IMG/VR virus record: IMGVR_UViG_3300015050_001523
Location: 32,001-96,000 of that record
Reading direction: 5' to 3' (one strand)
Source of the DNA: a virus
Taxonomy: Duplodnaviria; Caudoviricetes
Length of the DNA: 64,000 bases
Position numbers and translations under genes: made by a program. This document shows, in pieces, positions 38,737 to 57,489 of this stretch (position 1 is the first letter of the stretch; every line of letters starts with the position of its first letter). The notes under the pieces were generated by a model. It was not told where the DNA came from. It ran no database searches and was given only the letters and a program-made list of their open reading frames with translations.

Positions 38737-39942
38737 TTAGTTTTTGTTTTTCCATTCAAACTTTTTGTAATTTTCTTTTAGCCACAATTCAAATTTTGAC
38801 AAAACATCATCAATTTGATTTGTCATAAATTCTGCTGAATTCTTAAAGAAGAATGATTGAATCTTTTGATCAGCATGCTTTTGCACAAAAATCGCAAAAT
38901 CTTTCCTGGATGAAAATTCATTCTTTGAAATAAGTTCTGCAACATTCATTGCATTTAGTTCGATTTCTGAAGCATTATGCTTAATTTCGTCTGCAAATAA
39001 CTTTAATCGATCGCTAAGAACATCATAAACATCATCAATAAATCCTAAAAATATTGAATCAATAATTTGATTTTTGCTGTGCTCAATATCTCCACCACCA
39101 ACATGATGAAGGCTAACATATTTTGCATTCTTCATTTTGGCGATTGGACACAAATTTTCATCATAAACAACATATCCTTCAGGATATTTTCCATGATCTT
39201 CTATCTCTGACATTTTCTCAACAAAGAGTTTAACATCTTCTAGTGATTTATAACCAAGCAACCCAGGGAAAACTCTATGAGAAGTTACAATATTAGCTTC
39301 TGAAAATGCCCCATATAATATTTCATCATAAAGCTGAATATTACATTCATACCCCCCAGAATTACGATTTCTTGCTCCCAACAAAACAGCATGATCAAAA
39401 GGGTACTTTGTAACAATTCTGTTCTCTTCTGTGCAAAGCTCAAAAATATATGTAAATTCTTGGTTTAATTTATCCCAAAAAATGTCTCCAATTGTATCAA
39501 AAAAAAGTTGTTCAAATGTTTTATTTGCTTCGTGAGCATTTAATGTCGTGATTGAGCCAAGAGTAGAAATTTTCCATTCAATTCCAGAATGCCAAAGTTG
39601 AATGCATGTCCCATCTGACTTAATTGCCAAACTTAAATTTGGCAACCTTTCATTAAAAACCTTTGGATCAAAGATGGGGCAATGTCCTTCATGCTGATTG
39701 AAAAATTTATCAAATGGTCGGGCCATAAAGGCCCAATTTCCATTTTCATTTCTTAGGATTGAGCCACGACATTCTTTCGTAATTGGTTCTCCCCAATTGG
39801 CCGTAATCATTCCATATTTAAAAAGAAAAAATCCATCTTCTTCTTTGACATTTACTCCAAATTTTTGAGAAAAATCATTTTTAATGGCTTCATAATCACT
39901 TTTGGAATGATTAAGGTTTAAGTATTGAAGAAGATGGCTCAT
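38737..39942 (-). CDS. T4 Rnl1-like RNA ligase (leaderless)
   Basis: LFKY, ECRG.IL, ARPFDKFFN, motif I KSDGT, YIFEL, EGYVV, KMKN..YV..H. Confidence 0.88.
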   Translation of the reverse strand: MSHLLQYLNLNHSKSDYEAIKNDFSQKFGVNVKEEDGFFLFKYGMITANWGEPITKECRGSILRNENGNWAFMARPFDKFFNQHEGHCPIFDPKVFNERLPNLSLAIKSDGTCIQLWHSGIEWKISTLGSITTLNAHEANKTFEQLFFDTIGDIFWDKLNQEFTYIFELCTEENRIVTKYPFDHAVLLGARNRNSGGYECNIQLYDEILYGAFSEANIVTSHRVFPGLLGYKSLEDVKLFVEKMSEIEDHGKYPEGYVVYDENLCPIAKMKNAKYVSLHHVGGGDIEHSKNQIIDSIFLGFIDDVYDVLSDRLKLFADEIKHNASEIELNAMNVAELISKNEFSSRKDFAIFVQKHADQKIQSFFFKNSAEFMTNQIDDVLSKFELWLKENYKKFEWKNKN

Positions 39943-41428: not shown

Positions 41429-43924
41429 TTATTTGATCTTTAATTTATTTTCACTAAGAACCATTTTGACAACGGTTCCTTGTTTTACATTGTTTGTAAG
41501 AAGATATTCAGAAAGAGGTTTCAAAATTTCTTGTTTCATTAGCCTCTTTAAAGGTCGTGCGCCATATTTTGGATCATATCCATTTTCAGCTAACCATTCA
41601 CGAGCTTCAGTTGAAAGTTCTAAACTTAAATCTCTTTCACCAAGTCTTTTTTGAAGAGATTTCATTTGAATATCAAGAATGTTTATCATGTGCTCTTTGT
41701 AAAGAGGATGAAAGTAAATCATTGAATCAATTCTATTTAGAAACTCTGGTCGAAATTTGCTTTGAAGCAACTTATCTCTCGCTTCGCTAAGAGATTCTTC
41801 GTCATGATCTTGAAAATAAAGCTCTGAGCCAATATTTGAAGTTAACAATATTATTGTATTGGTAAAATCAACTGTTCTTCCTTGAGTATCTGTTAATCTT
41901 CCTTCATCAAAAACTTGAAGCATGATATTCCAAACATCTGGATGTGCTTTTTCTACTTCATCTAAAAGAACAATTGAATATGGTCGATGTCGTACAGCTT
42001 CAGTTAATTGCCCTCCTTCACTATATCCAACATATCCAGGAGGAGAACCTACCAAACGGGAAACAGAATGTTTCTCCATGTATTCACTCATATCAATTCT
42101 TACAATTGCTGATTCATCATCAAATAAGAATTCAGCAAGAGCCTTGGCTAATTCGGTTTTGCCAACACCGCTAGGACCAAGAAACAGAAAGGTTCCGACC
42201 GGCGCTTTTGGATCGGTTAGTCCTGCGCGGCTTTGGCGAATAGCATCAGAAATCGCAGAAATTGCTGGGTGTTGCCCAACAACTCTTTCATGCAATCTAT
42301 CTTCCATTAACATAAGAGAACTTTGGGTTTTTTGCTGAAGCATTTTTTCAGCAGGAATTCCTGTCCATGAAGAAATAACTTTTGCAATATCTGCTTCTTC
42401 AACTTTGTCTCGAAGATAGCTACATCCTGACTCTTGAATCTTTTTCAGAAGATCGGCATATTTTGAATACTGTTTTTCTAGTTGAGGAATATCAACATTC
42501 AAAATATTTTTTGCCAAATCAAGATTATCATCTTTTTCAGCATTTTTGACGGAATTCTTCAATGCCTCTATTGATTCAGTAATTGATTTTATTTTGCCAA
42601 TTGCTGTTTTCTCTTCTTCCCAAGAAGCTCTCATTTTCTCAACTTCAGATTCTAATTTTTTAATTTCATTATTTATTTTGATTTTTCGTTCTTTATTTTT
42701 TCTTGACTCTTCAAGGGATGAAGATTCTACATTCAACCGAAGAATTTTTCGTTCTTTTTCATCGATAACAGCCGGAAGACTTTCGATATCCATTTTCAAT
42801 TCTGCGCAAGCCTCATCAACCAAATCAATAGCTTTGTCTGGGAGACTTCTGTTTTGAATATATCGAGCACTTAGTTTTGCTGCTGCAATAAGGGCAGAAT
42901 CTTGAATAGTTAATCCATGATGATTTTGGAACTTATCGCGCAATCCTCGCAAAATGGCAATTGAATCTTCAATTGATGGCTCATTGATTCGGATTGACTG
43001 AAATCGTCGCTCTAGCTGTGGATCTTTTTCAATATATTTTTTGTATGCATCAGTTGTAGATGCGCCAATGCAACGAATTTCTCCATTGGCCAAAGCTGGT
43101 TTTAGAATGCTTGCAGCATCTTGGCCACTCTCGCTTGAACCTGTTCCCATAATGTTATGAAGATCATCAATAAATAAAATGATATCTTTTGCTTTTGAAA
43201 TGGAGGTAATAACTCCTTTTAGTCTTTCTTCAAACTGTCCTCGAAACTGGGCTCCTGCCACAAGGCTTGATAGATCAAGCTGCAAAATGGTAATATTTTT
43301 TAGAGAATCAGGAACATCATTCTTTGCAATTCTTTGAGCGATTGCAAAAACGATGCTCGTTTTACCAACCCCAGACTCTCCAATAATAACAGGATTATTT
43401 TTATTTCTTCGGCTTAAAGTTTGAATTGCCCGACGAACTTCTTGATCTCGACCAATTACAGGGTCGAGCTGGTCTTGCCTTGCAAGCCTGGTGAGGTCCC
43501 TGGTATAATTTGATAGCTCTTCTCCATATTCTTTGGGCGACACAACTTTATTGAGATCAAGTCCTTCTAAAATATGTTTGGTAGCATTTAATTCCATCAT
43601 TGCAAGAATTAAATGGTCAACAGATATTGTATTTTTTGTTTTTGTTGCAGCGACATTAAGCATTTCTTCAATATCGCTTGAATTTCTGGGATCACCAAAC
43701 CTATTGGTTCTAGGAATCTTTGTTAGTTCTTCTTTCAGACTCAAAGAAATGTCTTTAAGAGAACCTCCTGCATTTTTAATTAGAGCCTTATTTTTTTCAT
43801 CATGAATAAGCACAGCCAAAACATGAAGGGTTGTAAACTCCTGATGTTTTAGTCTTTTTGCTTGTTCAACTGCTTTAACAATAATTTTTCGGGCTGATTC
43901 TGAAACGTTTGATGGATTAAACAT
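41429..43924 (-). CDS. clpB: ClpB/Hsp100 disaggregase
   Basis: LDPVIGRD.E, GESGVGKT, coiled-coil M domain, GPSGVGKT, RIDMSEYMEKHSVSRLVGSPPGYVGY; no IGF loop seen. Confidence 0.95.
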   Translation of the reverse strand: MFNPSNVSESARKIIVKAVEQAKRLKHQEFTTLHVLAVLIHDEKNKALIKNAGGSLKDISLSLKEELTKIPRTNRFGDPRNSSDIEEMLNVAATKTKNTISVDHLILAMMELNATKHILEGLDLNKVVSPKEYGEELSNYTRDLTRLARQDQLDPVIGRDQEVRRAIQTLSRRNKNNPVIIGESGVGKTSIVFAIAQRIAKNDVPDSLKNITILQLDLSSLVAGAQFRGQFEERLKGVITSISKAKDIILFIDDLHNIMGTGSSESGQDAASILKPALANGEIRCIGASTTDAYKKYIEKDPQLERRFQSIRINEPSIEDSIAILRGLRDKFQNHHGLTIQDSALIAAAKLSARYIQNRSLPDKAIDLVDEACAELKMDIESLPAVIDEKERKILRLNVESSSLEESRKNKERKIKINNEIKKLESEVEKMRASWEEEKTAIGKIKSITESIEALKNSVKNAEKDDNLDLAKNILNVDIPQLEKQYSKYADLLKKIQESGCSYLRDKVEEADIAKVISSWTGIPAEKMLQQKTQSSLMLMEDRLHERVVGQHPAISAISDAIRQSRAGLTDPKAPVGTFLFLGPSGVGKTELAKALAEFLFDDESAIVRIDMSEYMEKHSVSRLVGSPPGYVGYSEGGQLTEAVRHRPYSIVLLDEVEKAHPDVWNIMLQVFDEGRLTDTQGRTVDFTNTIILLTSNIGSELYFQDHDEESLSEARDKLLQSKFRPEFLNRIDSMIYFHPLYKEHMINILDIQMKSLQKRLGERDLSLELSTEAREWLAENGYDPKYGARPLKRLMKQEILKPLSEYLLTNNVKQGTVVKMVLSENKLKIK

Positions 43925-51923: not shown

Positions 51924-52373
51924 TTATCTTCCTATTAGTTCTATTCGATTTAATGTGTTACTTTGTTTTTTTAATTTCAATTCAAGTTCTCTAATTGCTT
52001 CTTCTAGAACTACAGCCAACATTTCTAAATGCTCTACTCTTTCTTCTAGGGTTTTTGTAGTGGCAAGATTGGATGGATTGTGTAAGGAGAAAAGCCAAGC
52101 TAATACGTCACGTGTATAAAAAACGTGGTCTTTATCGATCTGGGCTTTAAAACCGACTCGTTTGCCACGCATATGATTACTTAGACTATTCCACAGCTCA
52201 TTAGAAAGATTCTTTTTAAGCTTTGCAATAGTCCATCCTATCGCCGTGTCAGGTTGTTCTCCAATGATTAACATGATTAATTCTTGTTCGTGCAACTCCG
52301 CATTTTTAGCAGGTTGCGCTATGGAGCTATTCTGTGGGCGATTCCATTTTGGAGAATTATTAATAAAATCCAT
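51924..52373 (-). CDS. hypothetical protein with C-terminal coiled coil
   Basis: ORF; start MDFINN preferred. Confidence 0.55.
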   Translation of the reverse strand: MDFINNSPKWNRPQNSSIAQPAKNAELHEQELIMLIIGEQPDTAIGWTIAKLKKNLSNELWNSLSNHMRGKRVGFKAQIDKDHVFYTRDVLAWLFSLHNPSNLATTKTLEERVEHLEMLAVVLEEAIRELELKLKKQSNTLNRIELIGR

Positions 52374-52383
52374 AAAGTTATTC

Positions 52384-53412
52384 CTATCTAATTTCATAAC
52401 CTTCTAAAATAAGATTATCTCGAAGTAAGTTATTTAGATTATTTACTTCATTATTCAAAAGAGAACGGTCTAAAGATCTACAATTTATTCTATAGCAATA
52501 TGAAGTTTTTCCATTTTTGTTTGTAAATTTATCAATTTGCACAACAGATTCTGCCAAATCTCCAAAAACATTTCTAACATGTTCATAAAAATCATTTGGA
52601 GAATAATTATCTGGCTCCCAAAAAGAGATATCTTTATAGCATAAAGGATATTTTGAATAAGGTTGAAATTTTGTAATTTCTCCTTCTTTGAATTGAGACA
52701 AAAAGCGATCGTCTTTTGACCAGAAAAGTCTAATATCTGGAATCTCAAAAAGAATCATTGCCAATCTTTCAAGTCCCAATCCGAAAGCCCATCCCAAATT
52801 TGAAACTTTACAATTAGACAAAATTTCTTGATGAATTACTCCACAACCAAGAACTTCTAATTTTTTATCATTCCAATTTACTTCAAATTCAAATGAAGGT
52901 TCTGTAAATGGAAAATATGAATTTGTAATTTCATATGTGCATTCAGGAAATAAATAAGAAACTAAAGAAGATAAAGTTGACAATAAATCTTTTTCAATGT
53001 CTTCTTTTGATGCATTTGGGATTATTTTTACTCCCTCCATTTGATGGAATACTGGATAATGAGAAGAATCAATTTCGTCCCTCCTAAAGACAGGGCCAGA
53101 AACTAAAAACCTTTCTTCTTTTTTATTTAGAAAATATGTTTGATGTGCAGAAGTATGCGTCCTTAAAACTTTGTTATTGTCTAAATAATAAGTGTCAGAA
53201 ACGCTTCTAGAAACATGATCTTTTGGAATCAAAAGGCTATCAAAATTATCATATATTTCAACAATAGGATCTAAAGAATCAAAACATTTAAATTCTTCAC
53301 CAAAGAATGATTGGATTCTTTTTTTGATAATTGATATTGGATGATTTGGAATTAGATGAAGATTTCTATCTTTTATTTTCCAAATATTTTCTGGAATGTT
53401 TAATCCTATCAT
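52384..53412 (-). CDS. pheS: monomeric organelle-type phenylalanine-tRNA ligase (catalytic domain + FDX-ACB)
   Basis: NLHL..NHPI..IK, NFDSLLIP.DHVSR..SDTYY, LRTHTSAHQ, FRRDEID..HYPVFHQMEG, GWAFGLGLERLAM, then SKYP..YKDISFW anticodon-binding domain in the same 342-aa chain. Confidence 0.92.
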   Translation of the reverse strand: MIGLNIPENIWKIKDRNLHLIPNHPISIIKKRIQSFFGEEFKCFDSLDPIVEIYDNFDSLLIPKDHVSRSVSDTYYLDNNKVLRTHTSAHQTYFLNKKEERFLVSGPVFRRDEIDSSHYPVFHQMEGVKIIPNASKEDIEKDLLSTLSSLVSYLFPECTYEITNSYFPFTEPSFEFEVNWNDKKLEVLGCGVIHQEILSNCKVSNLGWAFGLGLERLAMILFEIPDIRLFWSKDDRFLSQFKEGEITKFQPYSKYPLCYKDISFWEPDNYSPNDFYEHVRNVFGDLAESVVQIDKFTNKNGKTSYCYRINCRSLDRSLLNNEVNNLNNLLRDNLILEGYEIR

Positions 53413-53428: not shown

Positions 53429-53986
53429 TTATTTTGATAATTCCATTGATATACTGTGCATGGCGATTCCCGAAGCCGTCCCAACATTAACACTTCTTAC
53501 TGAGCCTCGCTGTTCAATATGAACAACCTTGTCACAAATTTCTAGGATTTCTGGCTGCAATCCTTGCTGTTCTTCTCCAAAAAAGAGCAAAGAATTTGGT
53601 TCCCATTTATGTTCTTTTAATGGGGTAGAAACTCCTGGAATTATATCCATTGCAATAAAATGTGAATATTTGCTGCGCAAATCAATAATTTGATTAATTG
53701 ATGAAAGATAAATTACATCTGAGTAGTGGTACGATCCGATTGCTCCTCTTTTATCAAACTTTTTTCGAGGACCATAATAAAAAATTTCTTGGGCACCAAA
53801 TGCATTTCCATTTCTGATCAAAGTTGAAAAATTAAAATCTCCATGAATCTGCATCATTATTGGAGCAAAAGGAAGAGTTAATTTTTGGATTTCATTTTTG
53901 ATTTCTTCGGTTGTCATTCCTTTGTATTGGTCAACAACATTTCCAAAATTGCCATTATTTGGTGCAGTATCTGGTAAAGTATTCAT
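53429..53986 (-). CDS. SpoU/TrmH family RNA 2'-O-methyltransferase
   Basis: N.STLIR..NAFG, FFGEEQQGL, IEQRG.VRSVNVGTASGIAM. Confidence 0.88.
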   Translation of the reverse strand: MNTLPDTAPNNGNFGNVVDQYKGMTTEEIKNEIQKLTLPFAPIMMQIHGDFNFSTLIRNGNAFGAQEIFYYGPRKKFDKRGAIGSYHYSDVIYLSSINQIIDLRSKYSHFIAMDIIPGVSTPLKEHKWEPNSLLFFGEEQQGLQPEILEICDKVVHIEQRGSVRSVNVGTASGIAMHSISMELSK

Positions 53987-55503: not shown

Positions 55504-56097
55504 TTAGGTCTGAAAATTTCTAAAAGTTATATTAATTCTGGGCTTCCAAACCTTAGTTCTTTTAGGAAGAGAATGATCCCAATTTTTTTGAGTTTCTCCT
55601 TCCATCAAAAGCAAACTCCCATTTTCAAGAATTATTTTTCTTTTATTTTTATGATCGGTTTTTTTTCTTAATAAGAAATCTCGTTCGGCGCCAAAGCTAA
55701 CACTTGCAATTTTTGAACCAATTTCTGATTCATCATCAGAATGCCAGCCAACAACATTCAAACCTGTCTCATATAAATTAACAAGGGCAGAATTAAATGT
55801 TGTTTTACAAATTCCTTCAATTTTATTTTTTATATCTAAAAGAGAAGATGACCAATAAATTGGTTCAAGTTTTATTCCAGAATAGATATAAACTATATCA
55901 GGACTATCGGCAAACCATTGATGTTTTCGTGGAACATTATGTGTTTTTCCATATACAGAAATTTTGTCTTGCCTCCAAAGAATTGAATTAAATAATTTTT
56001 CGAAAATCAAATTGGGATTTTCAAAATTTACAATGTTTGGAGGATAGTAATTAACAACTCCCGAATTATCATCAATAATTGATATTGAATTCGTCAT
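55504..56097 (-). CDS. alkB: AlkB (ALKBH2/3-like) 2OG-Fe(II) dioxygenase
   Basis: LVNLY..G...GWHSDDE, SVSFGAER.F, HSLPK, RINITFR. Confidence 0.92.
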   Translation of the reverse strand: MTNSISIIDDNSGVVNYYPPNIVNFENPNLIFEKLFNSILWRQDKISVYGKTHNVPRKHQWFADSPDIVYIYSGIKLEPIYWSSSLLDIKNKIEGICKTTFNSALVNLYETGLNVVGWHSDDESEIGSKIASVSFGAERDFLLRKKTDHKNKRKIILENGSLLLMEGETQKNWDHSLPKRTKVWKPRINITFRNFQT

Positions 56098-57069: not shown

Positions 57070-57489
57070 TTAATATAATTTAAGATCTTTGGTAATTGGA
57101 TCAATTTTTGAAGAGAAATCTGGCCCAATTGCAACAGTTGTATAGGTCTCAATTCCTTTAAATTCTGTCCTTCCTGAATCCTTTATTATTGAACAAATTA
57201 TATTTGAATCATTTGCTTTATTGTAAATATCTAAAAGTTCTTGTTCTGAATCAACAGTTAAACAAATTTTTGTAAATGAGCCTTGCATCCATTTGTGCAT
57301 GGCCTCTGAATTATGAACAAACTTGCAACAATACTCATTGTTTATATTTGAATCAATATTGTTTGAATTTTGTTCTTTCATTAAGTTTAAAAAAACTGCA
57401 AGAGAAGCATGGGCACCTTGGGCGACTTCTTTTCCCCTTCTCATTTTTAAATCTTTTCTAATTACTATAACTTGTTTTATATCGCTCAT
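57070..57489 (-). CDS. pth2: peptidyl-tRNA hydrolase Pth2 (archaeal/eukaryotic type)
   Basis: KQVIVIRKDLKMRRGK..AQGAHAS, KICL, I.DSGRTE, T.VAIGP. Confidence 0.93.
   Translation of the reverse strand: MSDIKQVIVIRKDLKMRRGKEVAQGAHASLAVFLNLMKEQNSNNIDSNINNEYCCKFVHNSEAMHKWMQGSFTKICLTVDSEQELLDIYNKANDSNIICSIIKDSGRTEFKGIETYTTVAIGPDFSSKIDPITKDLKLY

Follow-up and report, generated by a model that had tools for sequence, protein, structure and literature searches.

Why would a bacteriophage carry a phenylalanyl-tRNA synthetase (PheRS) of the single-chain form that has been reviewed as a mitochondrial speciality, universal in eukaryotes and of uncertain bacterial ancestry (PMC3275996), is the enzyme likely to work, and where does it come from? 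These questions are raised by a 64,000-nucleotide stretch of viral DNA (hereafter, the window), which covers bases 32001-96000 of the 322,518-bp IMG/VR record IMGVR_UViG_3300015050_001523 (CheckV completeness 93%). A preliminary description of the window, made from its sequence alone, had reported one 342-aa chain with class II motifs 2 and 3 followed by a ferredoxin-fold anticodon-binding (FDX-ACB) domain, and had taken it for an organelle-type enzyme (FARS2/MSF1) in a bacteriophage. We recovered the open reading frame (ORF), its Pfam domains and the quoted sequence strings at window 52384-53412 (minus strand). Judging from the sequence and a structural model, we consider it very likely that the gene encodes an active, stand-alone PheRS of the mitochondrial type (PheRS-M) that reads tRNA-Phe through G34.

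The gene is a single ATG-started ORF of 342 aa (52384-53412, minus strand, stop codon included), identified by ORF call, Pfam, NCBIfam and a structure-based match, and its product is called P0001 below. All further features of the gene lie on the same strand. Residues 16-241 (52690-53367) form a PheS-type class II catalytic core (Pfam PF01409, tRNA-synt_2d; E = 2.7e-53), and residues 253-334 (52411-52656) form an FDX-ACB, or B8-like, anticodon-binding domain (PF03147; E = 9.5e-12, above the gathering score), which opens with the string SKYPLCYKDISFW at residues 253-265. In an alignment with phage, giant-virus, bacterial, eukaryotic, SrmL and PheS sequences, P0001 keeps all four signature stretches of the core: the conserved His/Ser stretch of the PheRS active site, LRTHTSAHQ (residues 83-91; 53140-53166), which is the same as in eukaryotic mitochondrial forms; motif 2, VFRRDEIDSSHYPVFHQMEG (residues 108-127; 53032-53091); FPFTEPS, the aromatic wall of the phenylalanine pocket (residues 167-173; 52894-52914); and motif 3, GWAFGLGLER, with the pocket residue Ala209 (residues 207-216; 52765-52794). 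The key residues of these stretches did not vary in the alignment with 25 homologues, among them H86, T87, S88, A89 and H90 of the first stretch and R110, H123, Q124, E126 and G127 of motif 2.

Among the NCBI curated models, only TIGR00469, the pheS_mito equivalog, has a cut-off that P0001 passes (376 bits against 258.35, E = 1e-112). The bacterial PheS model TIGR00468 gave 180.9 bits, below its cut-off of 237.45, and covered the core only, without the PheS N-terminal region. The best solved relative was human mitochondrial PheRS (3CMQ, E = 3.7e-94), with bacterial alpha subunits at about 1e-41, and the E-values for TIGR00469 and for the human enzyme together exclude a chance match. The AlphaFold2 model, built on the homologue alignment, has a mean local confidence (pLDDT) of 95 and a predicted TM score (pTM) of 0.90; its top Foldseek match is again 3CMQ, over the whole chain (TMq 0.93, root-mean-square deviation 2.7 A), whereas bacterial PheS superposes on it over the core only (TMq ~0.6). 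Overall, family models, sequence, fold and the phylogeny given below support the assignment of P0001 as a phage-encoded, organelle-type single-chain PheRS, consisting of an alpha-type core and a B8/FDX-ACB domain, and the architecture first proposed for it holds.

A two-domain chain of this build does not have to be a PheRS. The same build is found in SrmL, the 'PheS-related mystery ligase' (NF051887), and P0001 could have taken on a new function, as has been proposed for SrmL, and be a PheRS-like ligase for a different amino acid or RNA. It reaches 254.2 bits on the SrmL model, and a sister group of huge-virus proteins (L018-L028, L038) has changed motifs. This score is, however, below the 300-bit cut-off, which two true SrmL proteins clear with 530 and 472 bits, and these share only 24-28% identity with P0001. 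At the sites where those proteins have PHQ/PYQ, HPYT and ALG, P0001 keeps FHQ, FPFT and AFG, and its G34-reading residues are intact. We rejected membership of SrmL on the score, the low identity and the absence of SrmL-type site changes, and regard a change of substrate in P0001 as distinctly unlikely.

The residues that contact the anticodon speak for a tRNA-Phe synthetase as well. Human mitochondrial PheRS reads G34 with Asp364, Phe366, Ser375 and Arg414, and loses its activity through the change Asp364Gly (PMC7540514). Alignment to the human enzyme, guided by that study, places D294, F296 and S304 of P0001 (within IDKF...KTSYCYRI, residues 293-309; 52486-52536) and its C-terminal R342 (52387-52389) at these four positions, R342 being the equivalent of the Arg414 that bonds to G34. 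D294, F296 and S304 do not vary among the 25 homologues, and R342 hardly does (conserved at 90% or more). The phage carries its own tRNA-Phe(GAA), with a regular acceptor stem and an A73 discriminator. The sole PheT-like part of P0001 is its last 100 residues (TIGR00472 positions 689-789), and the 342-aa chain holds no editing (B3/B4) domain; the phage genome has one PheS-like locus only, a separate pheT gene not having been searched for. The monomeric human PheRS is fully active without a beta subunit and does no editing (PMC3275996). With its catalytic motifs, phenylalanine pocket and four G34 readers all conserved, P0001 is therefore very probably an active PheRS. It has no presequence: the conserved sequence begins within the first 5-15 residues, and eukaryotic members are 30-90 residues longer at the N-terminus. 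Such an organelle-targeting presequence defines the location and not the enzyme.

The carrier genome is a T4-like (gp23-capsid) jumbo phage, neither a giant virus nor a chimera. The 322,518-bp record holds a gp23-type major capsid gene (PF07068, 199.6 bits, inside a 624-aa ORF) and 37 tRNA genes, tRNA-Phe(GAA) among them, which bears out its initial placement among bacteriophages. A search with capsid profiles of nucleocytoplasmic large DNA viruses (NCLDV) gave no match, in a run whose controls were silent too; a giant-virus origin of the record was rejected on the gp23 gene and on this negative, read with that limit. Short gp23-like fragments also occur as separate small ORFs, both in this phage (G000:C1:7823-7927 and 235394-235525) and in the PheRS-carrying IMG/VR relatives G001, G004 and G007. 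We noticed among the tRNA genes a tRNA-Ile(AAT), with A34, at window 11574-11648 (plus strand), in a phage that has tRNA-Ile with GAT and TAT anticodons elsewhere. An A34 anticodon is unusual for tRNA-Ile and normally needs deamination to inosine.

To which proteins, then, is P0001 most closely related? Searching 5.8 billion proteins gave thousands of matches, the closest of which were metagenomic proteins of ~340 aa (the two nearest at 66-67% identity, then 55-61%); named eukaryotic mitochondrial PheRS, at 50-57%, were intermixed with the metagenomic matches. In IMG/VR, two scans turned up full-length relatives on ~35-40 contigs, most of them over 200 kb and the long ones mostly 200-536 kb in length, and gp23 matches were present in five PheRS-carrying records among those that could be searched. 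In two relatives, the full capsid genes are 43-44% identical to that of this phage and the PheRS 51-54% identical; the genome of one of them is complete, at 518 kb, and has terminal repeats. From these parallel distances, the gene has diverged along with a jumbo-phage lineage, and we show here that it has long been resident there. The contexts read in other members are phage-like, with closely packed small same-strand ORFs, often beside tRNA enzymes: a CCA-adding enzyme lies two genes from the PheRS gene in the 298-kb assembly GCA_902731705.1, Macro, Tad2-like and AlkB genes lie near it in one contig, and RNase T and RlaP in another. Directly upstream of the PheRS gene of a further relative, a 280-aa ORF (L122:6783-7625) matches the catalytic core of AlaRS (tRNA-synt_2c) only and, from its sequence, looks like a truncated stand-alone AlaRS core. 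Among 50,697 GenBank phage records (INPHARED) there was no full-length homologue, only ordinary PheS-like partial matches, and megablast of 15 kb around the PheRS gene found no match.

The gene is not confined to phages. Three giant-virus contigs from metagenome-assembled genomes (MAGs) carry it, and six Bacteroidota MAGs (L030, L031, L033, L034, L036 and L037, with L119 as context) have mitochondrial-type PheRS genes (344 aa) that cluster tightly in one clade. In L034, the one context examined, the gene stands among ordinary chromosomal genes and the same MAG has a canonical PheS, so that one bacterium has both PheRS types. This opens the possibility that the phage gene was taken from a bacterial host with its own mitochondrial-type PheRS on the chromosome, such as some Bacteroidota have, and that it merely duplicates a host function. 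P0001 does not group with the Bacteroidota clade, though. The latter forms one tight branch inside the phage sequences, and a move of the gene from phage to bacterium would explain this position no less well. We consider this host origin very unlikely.

A second group of relatives (L018-L028, L038, L120; e.g. L023:5995-7059) was found on huge viral contigs of 266-498 kb. The PheRS-like gene there encodes 355 aa and has altered signature motifs: LRTHMTCY for LRTHTSAHQ, FHQMDA for FHQMEG and FPFTVDS for FPFTEPS. Its product may differ in specificity. The records of this group gave no gp23 or NCLDV capsid match; the gene adjoins Thg1, Pth2, SET, PARP and Kelch genes, and a UvrD helicase lies upstream of it at 4-5 kb, as it does in the window. 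One member is binned in a 'Candidatus Berkiella' MAG.

Phylogenetic analysis with organellar, giant-virus and bacterial forms, which the preliminary description had proposed as a check, placed P0001 in a non-eukaryotic clade and not among PheS. In all trees, P0001 grouped with P0002 and P0003 (100/99) and never within a eukaryotic group. The cleanest set had 49 rows (20 named eukaryotes, 25 non-eukaryotic forms and 4 PheS; LG+C20, careful search); most of the 25 non-eukaryotic forms were context-checked as phage, giant virus or bacterium, while the assignment of P0002, P0003 and a few IMG/VR loci relies on similarity or on the IMG/VR label. In the resulting tree, all 25 fell into one clade apart from every sampled eukaryote (ultrafast bootstrap, UFBoot, 82; SH-like approximate likelihood-ratio test, SH-aLRT, 92). 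This separation justifies the early remark that the gene bears on the origin of the organellar enzyme. Within the same tree, the giant-virus clade (L013, L015, L016) was nested among T4-like phage copies (L006, L008, L010, L012) with support of 96/93, which hints at gene flow between phages and giant viruses.

The deeper branching order varied with the method. FastTree gave two sister clades, and a quick IQ-TREE search on 142 rows put the short forms at the base; in the careful 81-row and 49-row trees, the long PheS branch attached among the eukaryotes with weak support. Approximately unbiased (AU) tests on the 81-row set rejected neither a tree holding the eukaryotes together (p = 0.58) nor one holding the short forms together (p = 0.59), and both constrained trees reached a higher likelihood than the free search; these tests should be read with the constraint groups in mind, which were partly defined after seeing the trees and in which 15 of the 34 'eukaryote' rows are without names. 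The root given by the PheS outgroup is unreliable, and the trees therefore do not fix the direction of transfer, nor whether the non-eukaryotic clade is sister to the eukaryotes or nested among them. As a rare-change marker, the insertion between motif 2 and FPF was tried and found not decisive: its length in eukaryotes rises by small steps, from 47 residues in Andalucia up to 113, and the short forms have 40-46. Two MAGs with bacterial and archaeal labels also hold mitochondrial PheRS genes, of which that of L040 (labelled Lapillicoccus, 6.65-Mb chromosome) branches with fungi and that of L032 (labelled Methanobacteriota) with land plants, which points to contaminated or wrongly labelled assemblies, or else to a transfer of very recent date.

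These results bear on whether the gene was recently picked up from a eukaryote, directly or through a giant virus, as a passenger without a role in the phage. The identity of 50-57% to eukaryotic mitochondrial PheRS fits such a pick-up, as does the root on the long PheS branch, which puts the non-eukaryotic clade among the eukaryotes in two trees. However, the nearest relatives are phage-like metagenomic proteins and other jumbo-phage proteins rather than eukaryotic ones, the 25 non-eukaryotic forms stand in one clade, and the constraint that holds the eukaryotes together beat the free tree in likelihood. Furthermore, the gene has neither presequence nor introns, keeps all functional residues and is spread over phages with deeply diverged capsids, and the giant-virus copies nest inside the phage copies, not the reverse. 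We therefore find a recent passenger gene highly improbable, and recent capture from any of the sampled eukaryotes unlikely. We read the non-eukaryotic forms as an old clade in its own right that adjoins the organellar enzymes. A bolder scenario, offered tentatively and with a good deal more doubt than belief, is that the one-piece PheRS (alpha core plus B8) arose in bacteria or their large phages and that the ancestor of eukaryotes took its PheRS from a phage, in which case the donor lineage would survive in the clade of jumbo phages, giant viruses and Bacteroidota. Such a phage-to-eukaryote origin has parallels in the phage-type mitochondrial RNA polymerase and the Twinkle helicase.

The PheRS gene lies ~84 kb into the contig, inside a same-strand block. 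A gene for a SpoU/TrmH-type RNA 2'-O-methyltransferase (53429-53986, minus strand; PF00588, E = 1.5e-21) has its stop 16 nt upstream of the PheRS start, and the two genes are probably transcribed together. On the other side, a 157-aa ORF without a Pfam match (51924-52397, minus strand; ORF call) has a start that overlaps the PheRS stop by 14 nt and thus reads as part of the same operon. Also on the minus strand are genes for an AlkB-type 2OG-Fe(II) oxygenase (55504-56097; PF13532, E = 1.8e-32), which is part of this RNA and translation maintenance neighbourhood, a Pth2-type peptidyl-tRNA hydrolase (57070-57489; PF01981, E = 1.1e-33) and a T4 Rnl1-type RNA ligase for tRNA repair (38737-39942; PF09511, E = 3.9e-14). 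A UvrD helicase, a metallophosphoesterase and a ClpB-like ATPase are further nearby genes; at a few kb from the RNA ligase and PheRS genes there is a ClpB/ClpA-type double AAA+ chaperone of 831 aa (window 41429-43924, minus strand).

This setting also bears on an assembly artefact, in which a piece of eukaryotic or bacterial DNA would have been fused to phage sequence. The record was assembled from a metagenome, and the sequencing runs with matches, all of them freshwater metagenomes, contained no more than small shares of the stretch. Against a false join stand the position deep within the contig and the same-strand block, the tight spacing to both neighbours, a base composition that is phage-like, and homologues in many independent jumbo-phage contigs, including the 518-kb genome with terminal repeats. 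There was no sign of a chimeric contig, no nesting of P0001 in ordinary PheS, and the C-terminal domain is FDX-ACB, all points on which the first interpretation could have failed. An artefact is exceedingly improbable.

What might the enzyme do for the phage? A single chain would activate phenylalanine in the PheS-type class II core, and the C-terminal FDX-ACB domain would hold tRNA-Phe by reading G34 of the GAA anticodon, with no need for a beta subunit. In the infected bacterium, the predicted substrates are the phage tRNA-Phe(GAA) and probably the host tRNA-Phe too. The phage is TTT-rich, as had been noted at the outset (TTT 3243 against TTC 627, ~5 to 1), and Phe makes up 4.8% of residues; a supply of Phe-tRNA-Phe independent of the host alpha2beta2 enzyme during translation of TTT-rich phage mRNAs might be the selective reason for keeping the gene. 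The PheRS could then be one item of a tRNA-maintenance toolkit, along with the SpoU methylase, AlkB, Pth2, the Rnl1 RNA ligase and the 37 tRNA genes. It is the sole synthetase of the phage as far as tested: searches with the Pfam models tRNA-synt_2b, 2, 1, 1b, 2c, 1c, 1g and 1d, positive in all control genomes, found no other synthetase core, CysRS, class I LysRS and two-subunit GlyRS being outside the test. A one-piece PheRS takes ~1 kb against ~3.4 kb for pheST, and the small form that needs no partner may be why PheRS is the only synthetase carried.

Several observations weigh against an active, phage-serving PheRS set in such a toolkit. The suppositions of the preliminary description that the enzyme bypasses an inhibition of the host PheRS, or serves an AT-rich phage in a GC-rich host, are conjectural, as would be a shortage of the host enzyme. 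When the window ORFs were compared by tblastn with 41 related loci, only PheRS matched, plus a loosely linked UvrD helicase in one group; the neighbours are thus not conserved between phages, and the toolkit is an association rather than an operon conserved across phages. The GC content of the PheRS gene (28%) is lower than the genome mean (33.6%) and just under the per-2-kb range of the window (29-38%), which leaves room for a foreign origin. A scan of promoters and terminators gave nothing above shuffled expectation, and the search of sequencing runs found no RNA run that contains the stretch.

The family and virus-encoded synthetases are already known, Bodo saltans virus being one with a PheRS (PMC5871332); what is unexpected is the carrier, and homologous genes have gone unremarked in public phage assemblies. 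Our literature search found no paper on an organellar-type monomeric PheRS in a phage or on its non-eukaryotic clade, and no prior description of SrmL. Here, an intact mitochondrial-type PheRS lives in a T4-like jumbo phage, within a diverse clade found in dozens of huge phage genomes, in MAGs of giant viruses and, on the chromosome, in one Bacteroidota lineage. The clade provides a concrete comparison group for the source of the organellar enzyme, puts very compact, bacterially expressed PheRS variants on offer for biochemistry and engineering, and adds a defined case to the puzzle of single synthetases in large phages that have near-complete tRNA sets.

Among known systems, the closest are the monomeric PheRS of mitochondria and plastids (human FARS2, yeast MSF1; TIGR00469; 'PheRS-M' in AARS Online; PDB 3CMQ and 3TUP), with which P0001 shares the two-domain chain, ~44-57% identity, the catalytic motifs, the Phe pocket, the G34 readers and the lack of an editing domain. 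P0001 differs from them in being phage-encoded, in having no targeting presequence, in its length (342 aa against 380-460 aa) and in belonging to a separate non-eukaryotic clade. Additionally, it is without their variable insertion, the spacing from motif 2 to FPF being 45 residues in P0001, 47-113 in eukaryotes and 42 in PheS. SrmL resembles it as a non-eukaryotic single chain with a PheS-like core and an FDX-ACB-like domain, but has a very long tree branch and altered pocket residues that P0001 keeps unaltered. In the bacterial PheS/PheT enzyme, the core of PheS is homologous to that of P0001 (34-40% identity, TM ~0.6 over the core) and the C-terminal B8 of PheT to its FDX-ACB domain; PheS relies on PheT for tRNA binding and editing, whereas P0001 joins both essential modules in one chain, without the N-terminal coiled coil of PheS. 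Finally, the synthetases of huge phages (Al-Shayeb et al. 2020, PMC7162821) and giant viruses (Bodo saltans virus, PMC5871332) offer the same setting, a viral synthetase beside many tRNA and tRNA-repair genes in a very large genome; the published phage synthetases were described as host-related (PMC7162821), while P0001 is of the organellar type instead.

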